The notes: a model not told the origin generated them from the letters alone. Positions 19,502 to 60,969 are shown, counted from the stretch's first letter. The stretch: DNA of 64,000 bases from Patescibacteria group bacterium (GCA_044868145.1 JBIOWE010000004.1:9395-73394); one strand, 5' to 3'. Numbers and translations are program-made.

Positions 19502-19679
19502 TGGACGCGAGAGGAATCGAACCTCTGACCTTACGGACCTGCCCGCCCAAATGTGGGCGCTGCTGGACTCGGACCAGCGACCTTTGCAATGTGAATGCAA
19601 CGCTCTACCAACTGAGCTAAGCGCCCACATTTAGGCGGGTGAATGAACCGTACGCTCTAACCGGCTGAGCTACGCGTCC
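19502..19679 (-). tRNA. Interrupted tRNA with anticodon CAU (Met or Ile2). 5' exon 19643-19679, 3' exon 19502-19538. A 104-nt intervening segment (19539-19642) contains a complete tRNA-Val.
   Basis: 5' half GGACGCGTAGCTCAGCCGGTTAGAGCGTACGGTTCAT and 3' half (GT)CCGTAAGGTCAGAGGTTCGATTCCTCTCGCGTCCA. Perfect 7-bp acceptor stem, D-arm, 5-bp anticodon stem (TACGG/CCGTA) and TTCGATT T-loop. The halves are separated by the inserted segment. No CCA is encoded. Confidence 0.6.
19554..19626 (-). tRNA. tRNA-Val (anticodon CAC), 73 nt, nested inside the anticodon-loop insertion of the tRNA above
   Basis: GGGCGCTTAGCTCAGTTGGTAGAGCGTTGCATTCACATTGCAAAGGTCGCTGGTCCGAGTCCAGCAGCGCCCA. Clean cloverleaf with U33 and A37. 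The T-loop reads TCCGAGT, with C at position 55. No CCA is encoded. Confidence 0.85.
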
Positions 19680-22240: not shown

Positions 22241-22795
22241 ATGAAGTTGATTGTGGGTCTCGGCAATCCGGGCAAAAAGCACGAGCATACCCGACACAAT
22301 ATCGGGTTTATTGTTTTGGATATGATTCAGAAAACATTGCAAGCGCCGGATTTTCGATTGGAAAAAAAGTTTGACGCCGAAGTTGCGGCCATCGAACAAT
22401 CTAGCGAACGCATCATCCTCGCCAAACCGCATTCATTCATGAACCAGTCGGGCCAGCCCGTACAACACATCGTGGGGTTCTACAAACTTTTATCCGAGGA
22501 TCTCTGGGTCGTGCACGATGAAATAGACCTCCCACTTGGGACGATTCGCATATCAAAAAACGTGTCTCCGGCCGGACACCATGGGATTGAGTCAATCGTC
22601 CAGCATCTTGGCACCCAGGATTTTATACGATTTCGAGTTGGCATTGCGTCCAACACAATGCCCAAAGAAACGACGAACTACGTGCTGGCGAAATTTGCCA
22701 AAGACGAATGGCTCCAGCCGGCTACCAAAACCGTACAATCCATCGAGGAAGCTTTACGAAATGGTGTTGAGTCAGCGATGAATCAATATAATTAA
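22241..22795 (+). CDS. pth: Peptidyl-tRNA hydrolase
   Basis: MKLIVGLGNPG...H(T)RHNIGF catalytic His motif. 184 aa. Confidence 0.95.
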   Translation: MKLIVGLGNPGKKHEHTRHNIGFIVLDMIQKTLQAPDFRLEKKFDAEVAAIEQSSERIILAKPHSFMNQSGQPVQHIVGFYKLLSEDLWVVHDEIDLPLGTIRISKNVSPAGHHGIESIVQHLGTQDFIRFRVGIASNTMPKETTNYVLAKFAKDEWLQPATKTVQSIEEALRNGVESAMNQYN

Positions 22796-22896
22796 TCCCC
22801 ACACCAACTTCAAAATAGTTTGAATAATGATGAAGTTTGTTTTACGGAACAAGCTTCGTTGTAGAACAAAGATTTTTCTTGAAGTTGGTGTGGGGA
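22796..22896 (+). terminator. Long hairpin immediately after pth: 18-bp perfect stem (TCCCCACACCAACTTCAA / TTGAAGTTGGTGTGGGGA) enclosing a loop of about 65 nt; terminator or structured element
   Basis: Perfect inverted repeat read directly. It is followed by ATTAAAAAG, which is not a clean U-tract. Confidence 0.4.
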
Positions 22897-22899
22897 TTA

Positions 22900-22929
22900 A
22901 AAAGCCCTCTTATCATCTAAGAGGGCTTG
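22900..22929 (-). terminator. Rho-independent terminator for the minus-strand gene 22941..23411
   Basis: On the minus strand: AAGCCCTCTTAGATGATAAGAGGGCTTTTT, a GC hairpin followed by T5. Confidence 0.65.
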
Positions 22930-50508: not shown

Positions 50509-51291
50509 CTAGACCGGCTGCAAGGCTGCTTCATACCCTCGCTCCTCAATCTGGTGCGCGAGTTCCTTACCGGATGACTTCACAAGTTTTCCATTAACCA
50601 TCACGTGCACAACATCCGGTTCGATGTGCTGCAGGACTCGGGAATAATGCGTGATGATAAGCATGCCCACGTTCGGTCCGCGCAGCGTATTCACTCCTCG
50701 CGCGACCATTTTGAGCGCGTCCACGTCGAGCCCTGAATCCGTCTCGTCGAGAATCGCGATTTTCGGCTCGAGCACGGCGAGTTGCACGATTTCCATCCGT
50801 TTCTTCTCCCCACCGGAAAATCCTTCATTAAGAGAACGTTTGATAAAACTTTCGTCCATACCGAGCAAGCGCATTTTTTCTTTTAATCTTTTTAAAAACT
50901 CTCCGACATTGACCGGTCGTTCTTTTGTACCGTGCAGGCTATTATAGGCGGTGCGCAAAAAATTCTGGATGGACACGCCCGACACTTCCACGGGATACTG
51001 GAAGGACAAAAAAAGGCCGAGCTTGGCTCGTTCATGCGGCGCTAGCGATAAAACGTCTTGCCCGTCAAACGTTACGGAGCCCTTCGTAATCTTATAACGC
51101 GGATGACCCATCAGCGCATTGGCAAGTGTAGACTTTCCTGAACCGTTCGGACCCATCAGCGCATGCACCTCACCTTGCGGAATGACGAGGTTCATTCCTT
51201 TGATAATTTCTGTTCCGTCTACTGTAACGTGAAGGTTTTGGAGATCGAGTGATTGCATAAAAATCGTGGCACGTATAGGTAGGGATACCAC
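50509..51291 (-). CDS. sufC: Fe-S cluster assembly ATPase SufC. The true start is probably the Met at MQSLDLQNL...
   Basis: Walker A GPNGSGKST, ABC signature FSGGEKK, Walker B ILDETDSGLD. Confidence 0.95.
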   Translation of the reverse strand: MVSLPIRATIFMQSLDLQNLHVTVDGTEIIKGMNLVIPQGEVHALMGPNGSGKSTLANALMGHPRYKITKGSVTFDGQDVLSLAPHERAKLGLFLSFQYPVEVSGVSIQNFLRTAYNSLHGTKERPVNVGEFLKRLKEKMRLLGMDESFIKRSLNEGFSGGEKKRMEIVQLAVLEPKIAILDETDSGLDVDALKMVARGVNTLRGPNVGMLIITHYSRVLQHIEPDVVHVMVNGKLVKSSGKELAHQIEERGYEAALQPV

Positions 51292-51308
51292 GACCTTCCT
51301 TGTCCGTC

Positions 51309-51418
51309 AACCCACCCACCAATTTTATAGGTCAGACCGGATTGAAATAACAGTGAATCGAATTATCAGTTAATGCCTTTTTATTGTTCTGTCTAAAATT
51401 GGTGGGCGGGTCAACCCC
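51309..51418. repeat. Inverted-repeat element of about 110 nt in the suf promoter region (GTCAACCCACCCACCAATTTTA ... TAAAATTGGTGGGCGGGTCAACC); a second copy of the same element family lies at 55528..55643
   Basis: Terminal arms of 13-16 bp, perfectly complementary, flanked by a GTCAACC(C) direct repeat. The arms share about 19/22 identity with the copy upstream of the ZIP gene. Confidence 0.5.
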
Positions 51419-51423
51419 AAAAA

Positions 51424-52935
51424 CTAGGACGCTACCTTCTGAATACTGAAAATTTTCTCTCGTTTGAGCGCTTCAAGCGCCAGCATTATGCGGTCATCAC
51501 TCTCGGCATATAGCGTATACAGCCGTTCGCCTTTTCGGATGCGCTGACCGATCCGCTTGTTGATGTAGATGCCTGCTTGGGGGTCGTGCGGTGCGCCCAG
51601 AATACGAGCGACGTCATCAATCGCCTTGTTATTGACAAAAACGACGGTACCGTAATTCGGGGCGTGGACGCGGTACCGCTTCGTCGCCATGGTCAAATCC
51701 TCGGAATCAATCTTTGGATTCCCGCCTTGCGCTTTAATCATCGCCTGCATTTTCTTCCACGCACGTCCGGTGCCAATTGCCTCACGCGCCGCCTCTTCTC
51801 CCTCGCCTACCTTCATCGCGCCGCATAGTTCGAGTAATTCGCCGGCGAGTCTTATCGATTTTTGCTCGAGGTCTGTTGGGCGGCGATCTTTTTGCTGCAA
51901 GACACGCAGCACGTCCCGCGCTTCGAGCACCGGACCGATCCCACGGCCGATTGGCTCACGCGCTTCGGTCAGTACGACCTTCGTCTTAATGCCAAACTGC
52001 CGACTTAAATACACAAACTTTTCACGCACGTGCCAAGCGATCTTTTTGTCCGGTATTTTTGTCGTCGGTCCAAACGGAATATCAATGACCAGGTGCGTTA
52101 TACCGGTCGCCACTTTCTTTGCCATAATCGAAACGAGCATTTTTGTGTATGGCTCAATGCCGATTGAGCGCGACACTTGAATAATGTGGTCATCCGCCGG
52201 CGCGAGTCGGAAGCTGCCGCCCCACACCATGCATCCATCTGTTTTTTTCACTACCTGTCTGATTTTGGTCAGGGACAAACTCACTGGCGCAAGCACTTCC
52301 ATGGTGTCCGCCGTTCCGGAGGGAGACGTTATGGAACGAGAAGATGTCTTTGGGATCAACACGCCATAGCTGGCAACAATCGGGACAACGACCATCGTTG
52401 TTCGATTGCCGGGCAACCCGCCCACTGAATGTTTGTCCGCGACAATCTTACCGGGAAACTTCAATGTATCACCGGTCTCCGCCATTGCCTTCGTCAAATA
52501 GAACAATTCTTGATCGCTATACTCTTTTGCAAAACTTGTAGCAACGAAGTAGGTTATCTCTACCGGGCCGAGTCGGTGCTCAACAATATCTTTCACAATA
52601 GAATATATTTCCTGATACTTGAGCGGTTTGTTCAAAAGCTTTTTTTGAATTGCTCGAATAGAAGCCGGGCGGGAGAGTATGGCAATCTCAATCGGCTCCC
52701 CGTTCTTTACTTTATGCTCGTGCCAAATCTCCCGGAAAAAGCCAACCTCGCCGCGTTTAACCTTTGTGCGGGTGTAGTACGCGCGGCAAATAATTTTCTT
52801 ACCATTCCAAGCAATCTCAATCAAGTCGCCGAGAATAATGCCGAACGTGATAGCTTCTCGCTCGTGCATCACCACGACCCACGGCTCACCCCCGGAGGAG
52901 AAATCGAGTTTTTTCGCGCGTAAGTAAAAAGCCAT
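51424..52935 (-). CDS. deoA: Thymidine-phosphorylase-family enzyme with an N-terminal extension; probable archaeal-type AMP phosphorylase
   Basis: 503 aa. KHSVGG phosphate-binding motif and TADT motif of the TP family, plus an extra N-terminal domain of about 80 aa. The length matches archaeal AMP phosphorylases. Confidence 0.75.
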   Translation of the reverse strand: MAFYLRAKKLDFSSGGEPWVVVMHEREAITFGIILGDLIEIAWNGKKIICRAYYTRTKVKRGEVGFFREIWHEHKVKNGEPIEIAILSRPASIRAIQKKLLNKPLKYQEIYSIVKDIVEHRLGPVEITYFVATSFAKEYSDQELFYLTKAMAETGDTLKFPGKIVADKHSVGGLPGNRTTMVVVPIVASYGVLIPKTSSRSITSPSGTADTMEVLAPVSLSLTKIRQVVKKTDGCMVWGGSFRLAPADDHIIQVSRSIGIEPYTKMLVSIMAKKVATGITHLVIDIPFGPTTKIPDKKIAWHVREKFVYLSRQFGIKTKVVLTEAREPIGRGIGPVLEARDVLRVLQQKDRRPTDLEQKSIRLAGELLELCGAMKVGEGEEAAREAIGTGRAWKKMQAMIKAQGGNPKIDSEDLTMATKRYRVHAPNYGTVVFVNNKAIDDVARILGAPHDPQAGIYINKRIGQRIRKGERLYTLYAESDDRIMLALEALKREKIFSIQKVAS

Positions 52936-52959
52936 AGTCCTTTTATTATAGCATGATAC

Positions 52960-53607
52960 TTATCGGGATTGTGCCACCCCAACGCGCGGACACCATTTCC
53001 GGATCGCGCACGTTGAACAAAACGGGGAAACCGGCACGCAGACGTTCTGACCCCAGGTGACAAGCAGTTCATTCCAGCGTTTCCAATATTTCTTTGGTAA
53101 TACTTTATAAAGAGCGAACTCCGTTTCTTCGGGCGTTTTTGTTTTGACAATGCCGAGCCGATTCGAAATGCGGTGCACATGCGTATCAACACAAATGCCC
53201 TCCTTATTGAATGCGACAATGCGGACGAGATTTGCGGTCTTCCTGCCAACGCCTGGAAGGGAAAGTAAGTCTTCCATCTTGGAAGGAACCTTGCTATGGT
53301 ATTTTTCCAGAAGTATTCGACACGCCTGCTTCAAGTGCTTTGCTTTTGTATGATAAAAGCTCACCGGATAAATGAGCTTTTTAACTTCCGCAAGCGGAAG
53401 TTTGAGAATGGCGCGTGGCGTAGGCGCTCGCTTGAACAATCGCGCTTGCGCTCCTTCGGTCACTTCGTCTTTTGTCTGCGCAGACAACATGGTGGATACG
53501 AGTACGCGGAATGGGTCATGCCGTCGCCCTACCTTTTCGACGATTGGCTCCTCGTATTGCTTGATGGCTTGTGAAAGCGTTTGGTAGATGTGGTCTATTC
53601 GATTCAT
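52960..53607 (-). CDS. nth: Endonuclease III (DNA glycosylase/AP lyase) with a 4Fe-4S cluster
   Basis: HhH-GPD motif LPGVGRKTANLV and a C-terminal CxxxxxxCxxCxxxxxC cluster (CVPVSPFCSTCAIRKWC). Confidence 0.9.
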   Translation of the reverse strand: MNRIDHIYQTLSQAIKQYEEPIVEKVGRRHDPFRVLVSTMLSAQTKDEVTEGAQARLFKRAPTPRAILKLPLAEVKKLIYPVSFYHTKAKHLKQACRILLEKYHSKVPSKMEDLLSLPGVGRKTANLVRIVAFNKEGICVDTHVHRISNRLGIVKTKTPEETEFALYKVLPKKYWKRWNELLVTWGQNVCVPVSPFCSTCAIRKWCPRVGVAQSR

Positions 53608-53613
53608 ACACGG

Positions 53614-53640
53614 GTAGGTCAGGGCCAGGCCCTGACCTAC
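53614..53640. repeat. REP-like 27-nt perfect palindrome GTAGGTCAGGGCCAGGCCCTGACCTAC downstream of ispH; the related copy is at 54697..54723
   Basis: 13-bp arms read directly. Confidence 0.55.
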
Positions 53641-53653
53641 GATGGAATAATTC

Positions 53654-54655
53654 TTACACCCGCATCTTCACCCCTGCTTTGATATGATGTTTATCGAGAA
53701 GCGTTCGGGCCTCGGCATGTTGTCCTGCATGTCCAACAAGGTCTTTTGGCAAACCGAAGAACACGCTTTCCTTCAAAACTTCCAGCGTCTCAACCGAGCT
53801 CGCGCCTTTGGATTTCAGAAAGTCAATGAGTTCTTGCACGAGCACTTCTGGGGCAGACGCACCGGAGCTGATGCCAACGGTCTTCACGTTCGCAAGCCAT
53901 GCCGGATCAACATCGCGATGCGAATCAATCAGATAGGCGGGGACGCCTGCGGACCGGGCAACGTCCACCAGTCGGTTGGAGTTAGAGCTTGCTTTGGACC
54001 CGATTATCAGGATAAGGTCAGAGTGTTTTGCCAGCTCCTTAACTGCGCGCTGGCGATTGGTTGTCGCGTAACAAATGTCTGCTGTCGGCGGAACCAGGAG
54101 TTTGGAGAATCGGCCTTTGAGTGAACTAATCACCGCGTGCGTCTCGTCAATACTCAATGTTGTCTGGGTTAGTACCACAACTTTTTCTGGCGTTGGGACG
54201 TTCACTTGTTCCGCTTCCTGGATAGTTTCGATAAGCATAGTTGATTGTGCCGGAACTTCACTCATCGTCCCTCTTGGCTCGAGATGGTCTTTGTGGCCAA
54301 CCATAATGATGAAATATCCTTCGCGATGATACCGTATAGCTTCAAGGTGCACTTTTGTCACAAGTGGACAGGTGGCATCAATCACCTGTAGCTTGCGACT
54401 GCGCGCTTTTTCATAGTCAGGCTTCTTCGACCCGTGCGCGGAAAAAACAACACGCGATCCTTCCGGTACTTCTTCAACCGTTTCGACAAAGATCGCCCCT
54501 TTCTTCTCGAGCTCGGATACCACAAAATTATTATGCACGATCTGATGCTTCACATAGATCGGCTTGCCGTACGCCAAAAGCGCCAGCTCGACAATGTCAA
54601 CGGCTCTATCGACGCCAGCACAGAAGCCGCGTGGATTGGCAAGCAAAATTTTCAT
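53654..54655 (-). CDS. ispH: 4-hydroxy-3-methylbut-2-enyl diphosphate reductase
   Basis: MKILLANPRGFCAGVDRAV N-terminus is canonical IspH. The ORF track extends to a TTG at 54694, so the ATG at 54653-54655 is preferred. Confidence 0.9.
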   Translation of the reverse strand: MKILLANPRGFCAGVDRAVDIVELALLAYGKPIYVKHQIVHNNFVVSELEKKGAIFVETVEEVPEGSRVVFSAHGSKKPDYEKARSRKLQVIDATCPLVTKVHLEAIRYHREGYFIIMVGHKDHLEPRGTMSEVPAQSTMLIETIQEAEQVNVPTPEKVVVLTQTTLSIDETHAVISSLKGRFSKLLVPPTADICYATTNRQRAVKELAKHSDLILIIGSKASSNSNRLVDVARSAGVPAYLIDSHRDVDPAWLANVKTVGISSGASAPEVLVQELIDFLKSKGASSVETLEVLKESVFFGLPKDLVGHAGQHAEARTLLDKHHIKAGVKMRV

Positions 54656-54696
54656 ATGTAACGACAGTCTAACATGGGATCCATGCTCGAACAAAC

Positions 54697-54723
54697 GTAG
54701 GCCATGGCCTGGCCATGACCTAC
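54697..54723. repeat. REP-like palindrome GTAGGCCATGGCCTGGCCATGACCTAC in the ispH 5' region (second copy of the family)
   Basis: 12/13 complementary arms with the same GTAGG...GGCC-N-GGCC...CCTAC architecture as 53614..53640. Confidence 0.55.
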
Positions 54724-54746
54724 CAGGGTTATTTTGTGTAGCTTAT

Positions 54747-55496
54747 TTATTCCAATAACAGCAAAAGTCCCATCACGCCGATGCCCAACAAGAAAAATAC
54801 GAGTTGTGCAAACGAATGACCAGTTCGTCGCTCACGATAAATCTCCGGTATGAGGTCTGCAGCCGCGATGTAAATAAAGCCGCCAATAGTGAACGGCACC
54901 AGAATGTGAGCGACATTTTGAACTGACACACCTATAATGAGGGTGATGACCGCTCCAAGCACAGCAGTAAGCGCGGAAAGGAAGTTAAACAAAAGTGCTT
55001 TTCCGCGGCTATACCCGGCATGGATCAGAATGCTAAAGTCGCCAATTTCCTGGGGAATTTCATGCAAAAAAACCGCTATTGTGGTAGACAGTCCAAGCGC
55101 CGGGTTTACGAGAAAACTGCCGGCAATAATGACTCCATCAATAAAATTATGAAATGCGTCACCGACAAGATTAATAAGCCCAACGGGGTGGGGGTGGTCT
55201 TCCGATGTGGGTATGTGGCAGTGCCGCCAAAAAATAATCTTTTCAAGTATAAAAAACAATACGATGCCTGCAAGAATAAACAACGATGACGTAAAGACAG
55301 CTTGAGTTTCTTGAAACGTTTCTGGTAAGAGATGGATAAATGCGTCGCCAAGAAGAGCGCCAGCGGCAAAACTCACAAAAAAGAGGAGGATTCTCTTCAG
55401 CTTGTCAATCTGTATAGCAAGCGTTAAAGCGCCCATGAAAGATACAAGACTGACAACCACAACGCCGGCTATCGTGTAAAACCAAATTTCCTGCAT
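54747..55496 (-). CDS. zupT: ZIP family divalent metal transporter (ZupT-like)
   Basis: HNFIDGVIIAGSF and HEIPQEIGDFSILI motifs. Eight TM helices. Confidence 0.85.
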   Translation of the reverse strand: MQEIWFYTIAGVVVVSLVSFMGALTLAIQIDKLKRILLFFVSFAAGALLGDAFIHLLPETFQETQAVFTSSLFILAGIVLFFILEKIIFWRHCHIPTSEDHPHPVGLINLVGDAFHNFIDGVIIAGSFLVNPALGLSTTIAVFLHEIPQEIGDFSILIHAGYSRGKALLFNFLSALTAVLGAVITLIIGVSVQNVAHILVPFTIGGFIYIAAADLIPEIYRERRTGHSFAQLVFFLLGIGVMGLLLLLE

Positions 55497-55527
55497 ACGT
55501 ATCTCTTAGGCTATCATGCGACCTGGT

Positions 55528-55643
55528 AAGGGTCAACCCAGCACCACTTTTACAAAGCCGTTCAAGTATTGGAAACCATACTCTACGTTGCGGTCAGTGC
55601 ATTACGCCGTACGTAATACAAAAAGTGGTGCTGGGTCAATGCA
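55528..55643. repeat. Second copy of the roughly 110-nt inverted-repeat element (GTCAACCCAGCACCACTTTTA ... AAAAAGTGGTGCTGGGTCAATGC), immediately upstream of the ZIP transporter gene
   Basis: Arms complementary over 13-15 bp. The end sequences are near-identical to the suf-promoter copy, while the interior differs. Confidence 0.5.
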
Positions 55644-55695
55644 AAAAGGGGCCAATGAACGGCCCCTTTCACTCGTATTGAATAAATTTCCATCC

Positions 55696-56705: not shown

Positions 56706-58418
56706 ATGCACAACGCCTTTTCCGAAATCGGTCTGGTGATCGTCTTGGCTGCTCTCCTCGGTATCATTGCGCGAACGCTCAAGCAGCCGACGATCCTCGC
56801 GTATTTCGCCACCGGGATGATTGTTGCTGCCATCGGCGCGATCGACGCGAACAGTAGAGACATTCTCGAAGTAATGGCAACGTTTGGCGTAACGTTCCTT
56901 CTGTTCCTGGTCGGGTTGGAAATGCGGTTCAGCAATTTCAAAGGTATTGGCAAGGCGGCTCTGTTAACTGCGATAGGACAAATCGTTTTTACCGCCCTGA
57001 TCGGATACGGCATTGTCCGCTTGTTCGGTTTTAACCCGCTTACGGGATTCTATATTGCTGTTGCGCTGACGTTCTCGAGTACCATCATTATCGTCAAACT
57101 GCTGTCGGAGAAAAAAGACCTACAGAGCTTATATGGGAGAATCGTGGTTGGATTTTTGATCGTTCAAGATGTCGTGGCAATCATGACGCTCATCATCCTT
57201 GGTTCGTTTCAAGAAGCTGGCGTATCATTTCATCTTGGACTGGTGGGCTTGTCTTTACTAAAAGGGTCAATGATTATCGCCGCAACGCTCTGGCTTGGCC
57301 AAACGGTGCTCCCTTGGCTTTTTGAAAAACTGGCAAAATCTCCCGAGCTGTTGTTTATCACGAGCATTGCGTGGGCATTCGGATTCGCCATGTTTGTGAG
57401 CAGCAAAGCGATCGGCTTTTCGATTGAAATCGGCGGCTTCCTTGCCGGGCTTGCGCTAGCGCATTCCGCAGAAAAGTTCCAAATTGACGCAAAAATCAAA
57501 CCGCTGCGAGATTTCTTCATTGTGATGTTTTTTGTGATTCTCGGATCATCGCTCATTCTCGGCAGCCTCAAAGGAGTTATCGTGCCGGCCATTGTTCTCT
57601 CGTTGTTTGTACTCGTGGGCAACCCGATTATCATGCTTATTATCATGGCGATTCTCGGATTTCGGAAGCGGACGAGCTTCCTGGCGAGTATTGCGACGGC
57701 TCAGATTTCCGAATTCAGCCTCATCTTAGTGGCGCTTGGCTTAAAGCTTGGTCATATAGACGAGCAAGCCGTTTCTCTTGTAACCCTCGTCGGTGTCGTG
57801 ACCTTTTTGATTTCGACCTATATGATTCTGAACAATGAGAAATTATTTAGAATATTCAGTCCCTATTTAAAAATCTTTGAGCGGCCGGCGCCGATGGAAC
57901 AATTGGCTTCGATGCCCGAGAAACAAGGCCATATTATTTTGGCAGGCGCGCATCGGCTCGGCCAGCGCGTGCTTTCCGTTCTGGATAAAGGGCACGTCGT
58001 CGTGGTTGACTTCGATCCGGAGATTGCCCATCAATTGCGCAAACAGAATTACCGGGTGATCTTTGGAGACATCACTGACCTCGAAATACAAGAACACGTG
58101 AATATAGAGAAAGCGCAGGCGGTTATTTCCACTATTCCCAGTCTTGAAGACAACCTGTTGATTCTGGAAAGCATTCAGGAATTGAAAAAACAGGGCAAGG
58201 TCGTCCCCCTCGTCATCGCAGCCGCAACCGAAGAATGGGAAGCAAAAATTCTGTACGAAGAGGGCGCGGACTACGTTATCCTCCCCTATCTCCTCGGCGG
58301 ACAACAACTTGCGTCGCTTATTAAACAAAACGATCTTGATCTCAAAACGTTAAATCAATTACGGAAGCATGATATACAATTTCTTGATCGTTCGGTAAGG
58401 GCTGGGACTGCTTCGTAG
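56706..58418 (+). CDS. Monovalent cation:proton antiporter (CPA2, Kef/NhaP-like) with a C-terminal RCK/TrkA-N domain
   Basis: About 12 TM helices followed by an HIILAGAHRLGQRV Rossmann (GxGxxG-like) motif. 570 aa. Confidence 0.85.
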   Translation: MHNAFSEIGLVIVLAALLGIIARTLKQPTILAYFATGMIVAAIGAIDANSRDILEVMATFGVTFLLFLVGLEMRFSNFKGIGKAALLTAIGQIVFTALIGYGIVRLFGFNPLTGFYIAVALTFSSTIIIVKLLSEKKDLQSLYGRIVVGFLIVQDVVAIMTLIILGSFQEAGVSFHLGLVGLSLLKGSMIIAATLWLGQTVLPWLFEKLAKSPELLFITSIAWAFGFAMFVSSKAIGFSIEIGGFLAGLALAHSAEKFQIDAKIKPLRDFFIVMFFVILGSSLILGSLKGVIVPAIVLSLFVLVGNPIIMLIIMAILGFRKRTSFLASIATAQISEFSLILVALGLKLGHIDEQAVSLVTLVGVVTFLISTYMILNNEKLFRIFSPYLKIFERPAPMEQLASMPEKQGHIILAGAHRLGQRVLSVLDKGHVVVVDFDPEIAHQLRKQNYRVIFGDITDLEIQEHVNIEKAQAVISTIPSLEDNLLILESIQELKKQGKVVPLVIAAATEEWEAKILYEEGADYVILPYLLGGQQLASLIKQNDLDLKTLNQLRKHDIQFLDRSVRAGTAS

Positions 58419-58536: not shown

Positions 58537-60969
58537 TTATACTCGCTGTTTCCTTAACCGTAATGCATTCCCAATCACAGAAACAGAACTAAAACTCATG
58601 GCAGCGGCAGCAATCATGGGGCTGAGGAGTAACCCAAACGCAGGGTAGAGAACACCGGCAGCAATAGGCACGCCAATTGTATTGTAAATGAATGCGAAGA
58701 AAAGATTCTGTCGAATATTACGCATCGTTGCCCGACTAAGTTTGATGGCACGAACAATCCCTCGCAGATCGCCTTTCACGAGCGTCACACCTGCGCTTTC
58801 CATGGCTATGTCAGTCCCGGTACCCATGGCAATGCCGACCTGCGCTTGCGCTAATGCTGGCGCATCATTGATGCCATCCCCAGCCATTACAACAATGCGC
58901 CCCTGTGTTTGAAGTCCTTTAATGATGTTTGCTTTTTGATCCGGCAAGACTTCTGCCCGCACCTCATCAATGCCCAATTCCTTGGCTACAGCTTCAGCCG
59001 TAGTCTTGTTGTCGCCAGTCAGCATCACAATTTTAATACCTTCTCGGTGAAGTTGCTGTACTGCTTCTGGAGTAGTTTTCTTGATAGGATCCATGACGCC
59101 AAGAAGTGCAACTATTCTCCCGTTGGCCACAACAAACATGACCGTCTGACCCTTCGCTCGTAATGGGTCTGCCTGGCTTGCTGAAGTATGAGTCCCGAGT
59201 TTCAGGTCACTCAGGAGAGAAGCGTTTCCAAGTGCGACTGATACGCCATCAACCGTGCCAGTTACACCTTTGCCTGTTTTTGACGAAAAGTTCGATGCTG
59301 GTGAGAGCTGGATTTTTCGTTGCAATGCTCCAGCCACAATTGCTGCTGCCAATGGGTGCTCACTTCCGCGTTCAAGGCTAGCTGCAAGCTTCAGGACATT
59401 ATTTTCTTTTATTTCAGCCACTGCGACTACACTGACAAGTTTTGGCTTCCCTTCAGTGAGCGTGCCAGTTTTATCGACCACGAGAGTGTTTACCGTACGA
59501 AGTACCTCAATGGCTTCGGCATCCTTGAATAGGACGCCGATGGTTGCACCTTTTCCAGCCGCAACCATGATTGACATCGGGGTAGCTAATCCCAGCGCAC
59601 ACGGACAAGCAATGATGAGAACGGCCACCGCATTAATAATGCCGTAGGCCATGCGTGGTTCTGGTCCAACAATTGCCCAGACAATAAACGAAGCGAAGGC
59701 AATGACGACAACGGTTGGAACGAAATATCTCGAGACACGATCTGCCAGCTTTTGAATCGGCGCCCGACTGCGTTGTGCCTGCGCGACCATCTGGACGATG
59801 CGTGCCAGCAATGTATCAGTACCCACCTTTTCTGCTTGCATAACCAAGCTAGCGGTTCCATTGATGGTTCCACCAATAACACGGCCATCAACATGTTTCT
59901 CCGAGGGAATCGGTTCTCCGGTGACCATCGATTCATCGACGGCGCTTTGTCCTTCAACGACTTTTCCGTCGACTGGAATCTTTTCACCAGGCCGCACGCG
60001 GAGTCGATCACCAACCTTAACCTGATCAAGCGAAACATCTTCTTCGAGTCCGCTTTGATCAATGCGGCGTGCAGTTTTTGGCGCCAACCCAAGGAGTGAA
60101 CGAATAGCCGAACTCGTTCGGCTTCTGGCGCGAAGCTCAAGTACCTGTCCAAGCAGGACCAGGGTAACGATTACGGCAGCGGCTTCAAAGTAAGTTCCGA
60201 CTCGTCCGTGCGAATCTCGGAAAGTTGTAGGAAAAATATCTGGCACAAAAACAGCTAAAACACTAAAAAGATATGCCACAGACACACCAAGCGCAATAAG
60301 GGTAAACATGTTTGGACTGCGGTTCACCATTGATTGCCAACCTCGTACAAAAAATGGCCAACCGCCCCAGAGGACAACCGGAGTCGCCAGGAGTAACTCC
60401 AACCAGGCCATGAGGTTGGGCGTTATTAACTTTTCAAGTGGCTGCCCCGGAATGAGTCCACTCATGACAATAATGAGAAGCGGAACAGTGAAGGCCACCC
60501 CATACCAAAAGCGACGACTCATGTCGACGAGCTCGGGATTCTCCGGCTCTTCAAGGCTCACGGTGCGTGGCTCGAGCGCCATACCGCAGATCGGGCAAGT
60601 CCCAGGCGCATCGCGTACAATTTCCGGGTGCATGGGGCAAACCCATTCTGTCTTATGCACTGGGGCTACTGGCTCCATTGGTTTCAGTGCCATGCCGCAT
60701 TTCGGACAACTGCCTGGGTCTTGTTGTTTAACTTCTGGATCCATCGGACAAGTATACGCTGCCCCGTTTCCTCCTTGTGCTTCCGACTCTTTTTTTGCTT
60801 CTGATCTAGCGACAGCTCTTTTGAGAAAACGCTCAGGATCAGCGTGAAATCGTTTTAGACAACGCGCGGAACAGAAAAAGTACTGCTGGCGTTTGTATGC
60901 CCATGTATGTTTCGTATCTGATTGGACGGTCATGCCACAGACCGGATCAATGTGAGTCGTCGTGGTCAT
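58537..60969 (-). CDS. copA: Copper-translocating P1B-type ATPase with N-terminal YHS/TRASH-like and two CPMxPE metal-binding modules
   Basis: DKTGTLT phosphorylation site, CPC transmembrane metal site ([12 protein letters not shown]), GDGINDAP hinge. N-terminal DPVCGMTV...YFFCSARC plus YTCPMDPE and WVCPMHPE modules. Confidence 0.9.

Follow-up and report, generated by a model that had tools for sequence, protein, structure and literature searches.

In a stretch of 64,000 nt from a Patescibacteria group bacterium (GCA_044868145.1 JBIOWE010000004.1:9395-73394; the whole stretch is called here the window, with positions counted from its first letter) we found three hairpin-forming elements: E1 and E2, situated upstream of sufC and of the gene for a ZIP transporter, respectively, and E3, situated between two convergent genes. 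Comparison with related sequences suggests, with a probability of about 0.75, that all three are copies of a non-autonomous insertion element of ∼100 bp, similar to miniature inverted-repeat transposable elements (MITEs) and widespread in the candidate phyla radiation (CPR/Patescibacteria). Four observations carry this reading: direct repeats of 4 bp flank the copies; homologous sites were seen both filled and empty; removal of the element from pilin genes restores open reading frames (ORFs); and the same element was found in RNase P RNA and in 23S rRNA. The original prediction, made from the sequence of the window, had offered a MITE-like mobile inverted-repeat element as one of several explanations, and it is the one that these observations favour.

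Elements in the window

E1 and E2 belong to a region where all genes are on the minus strand, in the order DUF5667 protein, terminator, E2, ZIP, ispH, HhH-GPD glycosylase, thymidine/AMP-phosphorylase-like protein, E1, sufC, sufB and sufD. The arms of E1 (51310–51327 and 51394–51411) are 18 nt long, 94% complementary and separated by 66 nt; those of E2 (55536–55551 and 55621–55636) are 16 nt long, 100% complementary and separated by 69 nt. In E1 the upstream (5′) terminal inverted repeat is ACCCGCCCACCAATTTTA, which takes part in a predicted outer stem of 22–24 bp (fold z = −3.65), while the downstream (3′) one, TAAAATTGGTGGGTGGGT, has one G.T position against the 5′ arm. In E2 the upstream repeat is ACCCAGCACCACTTTT (fold z = −3.78) and the downstream one, detected by the inverted-repeat scan and by folding, is AAAAGTGGTGCTGGGT. 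We refer to arms with the core CCAGCACCAC, the arm type of E2, as type A.

On the minus (gene) strand both elements read TTGA-C-CC..TTTT[~67 nt]AAAA..GG-G-TTGA-C, and their ends follow the pattern TTGACCC-N8/9-TTTT ... AAAA-N8/9-GGGTTGAC. The search pattern TTGACCC-N7-10-TTTT-N74-87-GGGTTGAC matched the window at E1 and E2 only, and the number of matches in dinucleotide-preserving shuffles of the window was 0.00. The interiors of the two elements are unrelated in sequence, and the differences between their arms are compensated inside each element. Near-identical ends around unrelated interiors, as described originally, were thus confirmed. The apparent G.U-type pairs at the ends of E1 and E2 arise only since both ends bear TTGAC as a direct repeat; for the same reason an RNA-specific pairing pattern at these ends was rejected.

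Measured from repeat end to repeat end, E1 is 100 bp long (51311–51410; recognized by sequence, pattern match and inverted repeat) and E2 is 99 bp long (55537–55635). Each has the 4-bp sequence TTGA (TCAA in plus-strand reading) as a direct repeat on both sides, located at 51411–51414 and 51307–51310 for E1 and at 55636–55639 and 55533–55536 for E2; with both flanking repeats included, the features occupy 51307–51414 and 55533–55639 of the minus strand. Position and inverted pairing of the arms had been given correctly in the original prediction, while the size of 110 nt has to be replaced by the above figures. E1 ends 47 nt before the ATG of sufC (51258) and E2 ends 35 nt before the ATG of the ZIP gene (55496); the distance between arm centres is 84–85 bp in both.

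By an unbiased inverted-repeat scan of the window we detected the third copy, E3 (22792–22900, without strand assignment), which has the same span and perfect 22/22-bp arms TTAATCCCCACACCAACTTCAA. The element proper (22796–22896, 101 bp, arms TCCCCACACCAACTTCAA) is flanked by TTAA at 22792–22795 and 22897–22900, the former TTAA containing the stop codon of pth. E3 is located between the convergent pth and a minus-strand ORF, beside a terminator, with no promoter nearby. Earlier, two loci only had been reported, both at promoters; the placement of E1 and E2 upstream of sufC and ZIP stands, but the missed third copy is not at a promoter. With sizes of 99–101 bp, the elements of the window contain no transposase ORF.

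Relatives in CPR genomes

Relatives were collected in two scans. Scan 1, in which one genome per species was searched with the end pattern (ends plus T-run), produced 100 loci; ∼58 of them have long complementary arms, which the pattern did not demand, and almost all of these are from CPR. The taxa met in scan 1 were Parcubacteria, Komeilibacteria, Kerfeldbacteria, Saccharibacteria, Microgenomates and others, along with a few metagenome-assembled genomes labelled otherwise. Scan 2, in metagenomes, required type A arms only, with flanks and length left free; the upstream arm of E2 was found in this way in at least 120 loci, with 111 unique elements among the matches listed (the ‘listed copies’ below). 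The two scans gave ∼170 relatives among the matches listed, nearly all from CPR/Patescibacteria. Several of the relative loci hold 2–4 copies, as compared with three in the 64-kb window; a search of viral contigs for copies of the family found none.

The terminal inverted repeats of the family are 13–22 bp long and start with YCC (E1 CCCGCCCACC, E2 CCCAGCACCAC, E3 TCCCCACACC), with CCAGCACCAC, CCCGTTAGAA, CCCACCACCTC and CCGCCCACCAA as recurring arm types. The CC-to-GG length of the 111 listed copies is bimodal, with a main mode at 96–106 (modal value 101–103) and a minor one at 76–88. Interiors differ between most copies; subfamilies with conserved interiors also occur. When 33 distinct arm pairs were aligned, 89.4% of the cells were paired, and cells with double changes across arm types numbered 130 against 49 in shuffles, none of the 500 shuffles reaching as high a value. 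Mismatches of the G.U type and of the A.C type are about equally frequent in the arms (24 to 17 and 24 to 37), thus giving no RNA-strand signal, and by fold z-scores the interiors are no more structured than flanking controls.

At one locus (L045:4836-5943; L numbers denote the collected loci) a segment is framed by two oppositely oriented copies of one element, which lie ∼1 kb from each other; this resembles a composite transposon or an invertible segment.

Flanking direct repeats

Flanks resembling target-site duplications, which the original prediction had proposed to look for, were found in all three copies of the window (TTGA/TTGA at E1 and E2, TTAA/TTAA at E3). The 4-mers located one base outside the arms were identical in 54 of the 111 listed type A copies, while random re-pairing of flanks gave 11.7 on average and 21 at most. 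Among the identical 4-mers were TTTA (38 copies), TTGA (12), CGCG (2) and TTCA (1); TTAA as a flanking duplication is specific to E3. Exclusion of copies linked to pilin genes leaves 37 of 84 with identical flanking 4-mers against 5.8 expected. The base that separates the 4-mer from CCAGC...GCTGG is itself part of a complementary pair, C-G in 71 and T-A in 28 of the 111 listed copies. Elements with other arm types, met by chance in the same loci, had flank pairs TTTA, TTCA, TTGA, TAAA or CTCA. These comparisons support the interpretation of the 4-bp flanking repeat as a putative target-site duplication at TTNA (TTTA, TTGA, TTAA).

Copies at pilin genes

We observed that 27 of the 111 listed type A copies are situated where type IV pilin-like genes begin (5′ end), in frame within the leader peptide. 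The downstream arm and the repeat are there part of the coding sequence, AAA/GAA AGT GGT GCT GGG TTT ACC ..., translated as K/E-S-G-A-G|F-T-L-I-E with the prepilin peptidase site; a second, short canonical leader ending in Gly-Phe is often present upstream of the element. In silico deletion of the element with one copy of the repeat produced an intact canonical prepilin ORF for 13 of the 27 pilin-linked copies; the restored ORFs include MKQKGFTLIEL..., MRKQKGFTIIEL... and MITKREKGFTIIEL.... Such a deletion is in effect a reconstruction of the empty site, and it speaks strongly for insertion of the element at TTTA within GGN-TTT-ACN. Two features make the insert tolerable: the Gly codon is rebuilt by the end of the element (..GGR), and the additional peptide belongs to the leader, which is cleaved off.

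Most pilin-linked copies carry their own ATG 30–41 nt inside the element, without a Shine–Dalgarno sequence. In these copies the geometry of a leaderless promoter results from TTTACC (the upstream repeat with the adjacent C), the arm of 17 nt and a hexamer similar to AATAAT. In some loci (L106, L152, L197, L188, L161) short type IV pilin-like genes form clusters in which successive genes each start inside a hairpin element; their leaders are unusually long (20–25 aa or more) and end in SGAG|FT, and the mRNAs are apparently leaderless.

One could suppose that the 5′ ends of pilin genes, comprising the promoter, the sequence coding for the leader peptide and the G|FT codons, survived gene decay or recombination as relics, and that the elements are these relics and not separate insertions. 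The 3′ arm of E2 with the next bases reads K-S-G-A-G-L-T, which is near to the K-S-G-A-G|F-T-L-I-E of the 27 pilin-linked copies, and GFT-like or GLT-like codons are kept after the arm in many non-pilin copies. Still, this origin would leave unexplained the upstream inverted arm, the 4-bp repeats, the copies in rRNA and RNase P genes and the remnant short leader upstream of the element in pilin genes; also, no pilin gene of the G-F-T-L-I-E type was found in the window. We consider it very unlikely. Paralogous copies as such were rejected as proof of transposition, many of them being starts of paralogous pilin genes; only the RNase P/23S pair described below and the pair L065/L077 stay informative.

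Copies in stable RNA genes

Among the matches listed, type A arms occur in 23S rRNA at five or more sites, in 16S rRNA at two sites and in the P16/P17 region of RNase P RNA. In L155:10371-14265 (metagenome contig Ga0208373_1003625) one 23S rRNA gene has four pairs of type A arms (CCAGCACCAC...GTGGTGCTGG), 43 to ∼300 nt apart, and three of these four sites could be aligned against empty homologues. The 23S site near position 600 is occupied by the element in L115, L189 and L190 and by a short native hairpin in L155 and L218; the interiors of the elements at this shared site are unrelated and cannot be aligned, while the arms stay identical. An extended stem-loop replacing the tip of a variable helix in 23S rRNA is seen in the relatives L115, L155, L189, L190 and L218; E1, E2 and E3 are intergenic. 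In a CPR RNase P RNA (L133:1483-1900) the P16/P17 region is replaced by a type A hairpin element, the interior of which is ∼85–90% similar to that of an element on another contig (L186), where it lies in the 3′ part of a 23S gene; therefore, one element is present in two different host genes.

In a survey of CPR rRNA genes many short, non-intron insertions were described at known sites of intervening sequences, and cleavage by RNase III was suggested for them (PMC11270868). Our literature search found no description tying CPR rRNA insertions to intergenic or pilin copies.

The copies in RNA genes bring up the possibility that the element is an RNA hairpin used by the host. The transcribed stem of 20–24 bp would be a processing, insulating or stabilizing site (e.g. 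a substrate of RNase III, like rRNA intervening sequences), read by a CPR-specific RNA-binding protein or nuclease. The same stems are found in 23S rRNA, 16S rRNA and RNase P RNA, molecules in which nothing but an RNA hairpin would be tolerated; the RNase III cleavage proposed for the CPR insertions and the arms that remain identical at a shared rRNA site despite fully diverged interiors agree with this explanation as well. At E1 the hairpin would separate or stabilize the transcripts of the upstream phosphorylase-like gene and of the suf operon, in line with the fact that there is no terminator between E1 and its upstream gene. Also, E1 and E2 fold better than shuffled sequences (z ∼ −3.7).

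The RNA-level explanation meets difficulties at E2. The DUF5667 gene upstream has an intrinsic terminator (GGGGCC-loop-GGCCCC followed by TTTTT; 55643–55666, minus strand), which ends 3 nt before E2; as this strong terminator precedes E2 and the −35 box follows it, E2 is probably barely transcribed. Furthermore, transcription from the pilin-linked promoter geometry starts inside the element and leaves the 5′ arm untranscribed; G.U mismatches do not prevail over A.C on either strand and the interiors are unstructured; the 4-bp direct repeats and the ORF restoration find no explanation at the RNA level. Taken as the whole explanation, a host-used RNA hairpin is thus unlikely.

A long regulatory RNA stem, suggested originally, finds no support, given interiors as unstructured as the controls, the probably negligible transcription of E2 and the absence of Rfam matches. 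In the Rfam search of the whole window at the gathering score, and at E ≤ 1 around E1 and E2, we observed only tRNAs and one chance match to a small RNA, with none for E1 or E2. A riboswitch or another cis-regulatory RNA was not supported either: the interiors are unrelated and unstructured, Rfam gave no match and the element is upstream of the −35 box.

Promoters and the question of metal regulation

The terminal TTGAC is followed at a distance of 16–18 nt by a −10 box (xAxxxT with at least 4/6 matches to TATAAT) in 37 of 52 elements with true arms; the same test on pattern matches without an inverted repeat gave 0 of 29. Start codons are often situated 32–39 nt downstream of the terminal TTGAC, a geometry of leaderless mRNAs. 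The candidate ZIP promoter (55508–55536, minus strand) has a −35 box TTGACC (55536–55531), made of the downstream repeat and CC, a 17-nt spacer and a −10 box TAGCCT (55513–55508); the ZIP ATG is located 11 nt past the −10 box, which is close to a leaderless arrangement. The putative sufC promoter at E1 (51282–51310, minus strand) consists of TTGACG (51310–51305; the downstream repeat and CG), a 17-nt spacer and TGgTATCCC (−10 box at 51287–51282). The sequences TTGA(C) and TTTA(C) also form the core of −35 hexamers, which would account for the location of TTGAC-ended copies next to working promoters, among them that of ZIP and probably that of sufC.

Two further promoter arrangements were rejected. 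An invertible promoter does not fit, as the −35 and −10 boxes are outside or at the edge of the repeats and inversion would change nothing. A promoter directed by the 5′ TTGAC into E1 or E2 lacks a −10 box at 16–18 nt, though such an arrangement fits the pilin-linked subfamily.

The location of E1 and E2 upstream of two metal-related genes had led to the proposal of operator half-sites for a metal or redox regulator. The arms would bind a regulator that loops ∼85 bp of DNA and co-regulates suf and ZIP, and the spacing of arm centres (84–85 bp, ∼eight helical turns) in both elements speaks for it. However, the genes found downstream of TTGAC-ended relatives are those of EF-Tu (tuf), GroES (groES), glnA, ftsZ, uvrA, htpX, an ECF sigma factor, greA, ribosomal protein L10 (rplJ) and a U32 peptidase, and other relatives are inside pilin, rRNA and RNase P genes; E3 has no promoter. 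In four ZIP orthologues of the closest available relatives (65–74% identity) the upstream region is short, has an ordinary −10 box and lacks the inverted repeat; one of these orthologues is preceded by a gene of the Fur family. Also, compensation of arm differences within an element is not needed by a protein that reads two independent half-sites. The operator reading is highly improbable and already largely refuted, and a metal-responsive operator of the Fur, Zur, SufR or IscR type finds no support in the same data. In our reading the element is no metal-responsive regulator, and the pairing of the suf operon with ZIP is coincidental; given the variety of housekeeping genes downstream of the relatives, the emphasis placed originally on two metal-related promoters is not supported.

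In L227:2090-3250 (GCA_964364675.1) the ZIP gene directly follows the gene of a Fur-family regulator, with VIT1 and an Fe-S assembly protein nearby; a Fur-family gene before ZIP is the conventional way to metal control of this transporter. In the window, the neighbours of the ZIP region are genes for a P-type heavy-metal ATPase with YHS and HMBD domains (58537–60969) and for a Na+/H+ exchanger with a TrkA-N domain (56706–58418), so that these surroundings are rich in ion-transport genes irrespective of the repeats.

We also rejected an integron attC site, as the ends of the elements are direct TTGAC repeats and not RYYYAAC/GTTRRRY.

Proposed mechanism and its limits

We propose that a transposase would recognize the YCC termini of the non-autonomous element and cut TTNA with a 4-bp stagger, making the 4-bp duplication. 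The element would persist where a hairpin insert of ∼100 nt is harmless: in intergenic gaps, at helix tips of structural RNAs and in the removable leader of pilins. At E1 and E2 we infer that the target was a −35 hexamer with TTGAC, entered at its TTGA. The downstream TTGA with the next base would then give TTGAC again, at an unchanged distance (17 nt) from the −10 box already there; since this duplication copy rebuilds the hexamer, the sufC and ZIP promoters would survive and the element would stay as near-neutral DNA just upstream of the −35 box.

A number of observations weigh against mobility as the explanation. Identical flanking 4-mers are absent in 57 of the 111 listed copies, and the rRNA copies stand in place of helix tips with no duplication visible. 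The −10 box of sufC at E1 is weak; it has no final T and fails the xAxxxT criterion. Within one genome, the copies usually have unrelated interiors and near-perfect arms (part of this perfection being imposed by the search patterns), a pattern hardly expected of recent transposition and perhaps a sign that a host factor selects on the arm sequence. Likewise, the identity of arms around unalignable interiors, as seen at one rRNA site, suggests that selection acts on the sequence of the arms, be it by a transposase or by a host RNA- or DNA-binding factor. In ∼1.6 Mb of the collected loci we found neither a transposase nor an autonomous partner, and no arm pairs 0.14–3.5 kb apart that enclose a gene; only neighbouring small elements pair. 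The copies seen in the source organism are the three in the 64-kb window. An RNA-level role of transcribed copies in processing or insulation may coexist with mobility as a secondary effect. Finally, the case for mobility is built on comparison of sequences.

A more elaborate alternative is conceivable though rather doubtful. According to it, the arms would be more than sites for a transposase, namely a sequence-specific module employed by CPR cells: a TTNA-targeting element similar to piggyBac/IS1380, perhaps excised seamlessly, was domesticated as a cassette combining pilin promoter, leaderless start and leader peptide, and as a stem shared by the intervening sequences of 23S rRNA, 16S rRNA, RNase P RNA and possibly tRNA, with a dedicated protein of the host or of the element reading the same stem of 10–14 bp.

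Other inverted repeats in the window

A possibly related hairpin (19541–19640, minus strand; arms ACCCGCCTAAAT and ATTTGGGCGGG) encloses tRNA-Val(CAC) and is itself inserted into another tRNA gene (CAT), at the anticodon loop; as it lacks a matching flanking repeat, its membership in the family is uncertain. The tRNA-Val(CAC) gene (19553–19626) is enclosed by an inverted repeat of 11–12 bp, making a hairpin of ∼100 nt within the outer tRNA gene (whole arrangement at 19541–19660, minus strand); when the insert is removed in silico, a canonical tRNA remains, its anticodon being CAT. In its present form the outer tRNA was called neither by Rfam nor by ARAGORN (its intron mode included), and none of the other 68 tRNAs in the collected loci had such flanks. 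As judged from its sequence, the outer gene may be either disrupted or part of a nested, split-tRNA-like arrangement.

Two GC-rich palindromes of 27 nt that start with GTAG, at 53614–53640 (GTAGGTCAGGGCCAGGCCCTGACCTAC) and 54697–54723 (GTAGGCCATGGCCTGGCCATGACCTAC), flank ispH. They resemble repetitive extragenic palindromic (REP) elements or terminators; matches in shuffled sequence numbered 0.00.

Significance and comparison with known systems

The genomes of CPR bacteria are very small, and mobile DNA and regulators are regarded as scarce in them. A palindromic insertion element spread over the whole phylum would explain many intergenic hairpins of CPR as well as short rRNA insertions already noted. 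For annotators it carries a warning that shared upstream repeats need not be regulons. It would also illustrate a route to neutrality in which duplication of a −35 box, or of the Gly-Phe-Thr site at which a prepilin is cleaved, keeps the host function intact, and it would point to a bacterial TTNA-specific transposase with piggyBac-like end signatures, of interest to those who study transposons or develop tools.

Elements of this kind are known, as MITEs, Rickettsia palindromic elements and rRNA intervening sequences; the family itself is apparently undescribed, while its choice of targets, −35 boxes and prepilin cleavage codons, is unusual. Our literature search on CPR inverted repeats, MITEs or REPINs found nothing specific and no published description of the family.

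REPINs (the REP-RAYT system) consist of two conserved inverted sequences of ∼20 nt located ∼70 nt apart, which form a hairpin of ∼110 nt with a less conserved spacer; they are extragenic and carry a GTAG motif. The CPR element is similar in its inverted conserved arms, their spacing, the size of the hairpin and the variable spacer. Assignment to REPINs was rejected, as the arms (CCAGCACCACTTTT and others) are not self-complementary and have no GTAG, a duplication is present and copies are found in genes as well.

Correia elements of Neisseria are bacterial MITEs of ∼100–150 bp, non-coding and intergenic, with terminal inverted repeats and a short TA duplication; their ends provide promoter hexamers and their transcript is a long hairpin. 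In size, inverted repeats, a short duplication, dispersal in intergenic DNA, contribution to promoter hexamers and hairpin formation the CPR element resembles them. It differs in that the duplication is a 4-bp TTNA instead of TA, the interiors are mostly unrelated, and copies also occur in pilin leaders, rRNA and RNase P genes; moreover, the −35 box is the duplicated target and not element sequence, and no parent insertion sequence is known.

Rickettsia palindromic elements are selfish palindromes of 100–150 bp found in frame in protein genes and in RNA genes. By description, the CPR element is alike in surviving in frame and in RNA genes since the insert is structurally tolerated. Unlike them, it is situated in a leader removed by prepilin peptidase, its end rebuilds the Gly codon before Phe-Thr, and it has a clear 4-bp duplication.

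Members of the piggyBac/IS1380 superfamily make a 4-bp TTAA-like duplication and have inverted repeats of 12–19 bp that start with C, typically CCC...GGG; IS1380 transposases are distant prokaryotic relatives of the superfamily, while piggyBac proper is eukaryotic (PMC5381638; PMC10140906). The CPR element resembles them, in signature only, by a 4-bp duplication at TTAA-like sites and by its YCC ends. Unlike in piggyBac, the target is TTNA, mostly TTTA or TTGA and not strictly TTAA. As no transposase gene was found in the collected loci, this apparent likeness is a lead only.

Among known systems are also the intervening sequences of 23S rRNA, including short rRNA insertions in CPR (PMC11270868; PMC4990558). 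Short hairpin insertions in CPR rRNA genes had already been noted (PMC11270868). The relatives of E2 resemble intervening sequences in that they replace tips of variable helices, including the one near position 600, by a stem-loop of ∼80–110 nt and occur sporadically among lineages. The CPR element, in contrast, is found outside rRNA as E1, E2 and E3, and the same stem is common to mRNA leaders, intergenic DNA, 16S rRNA and RNase P RNA.

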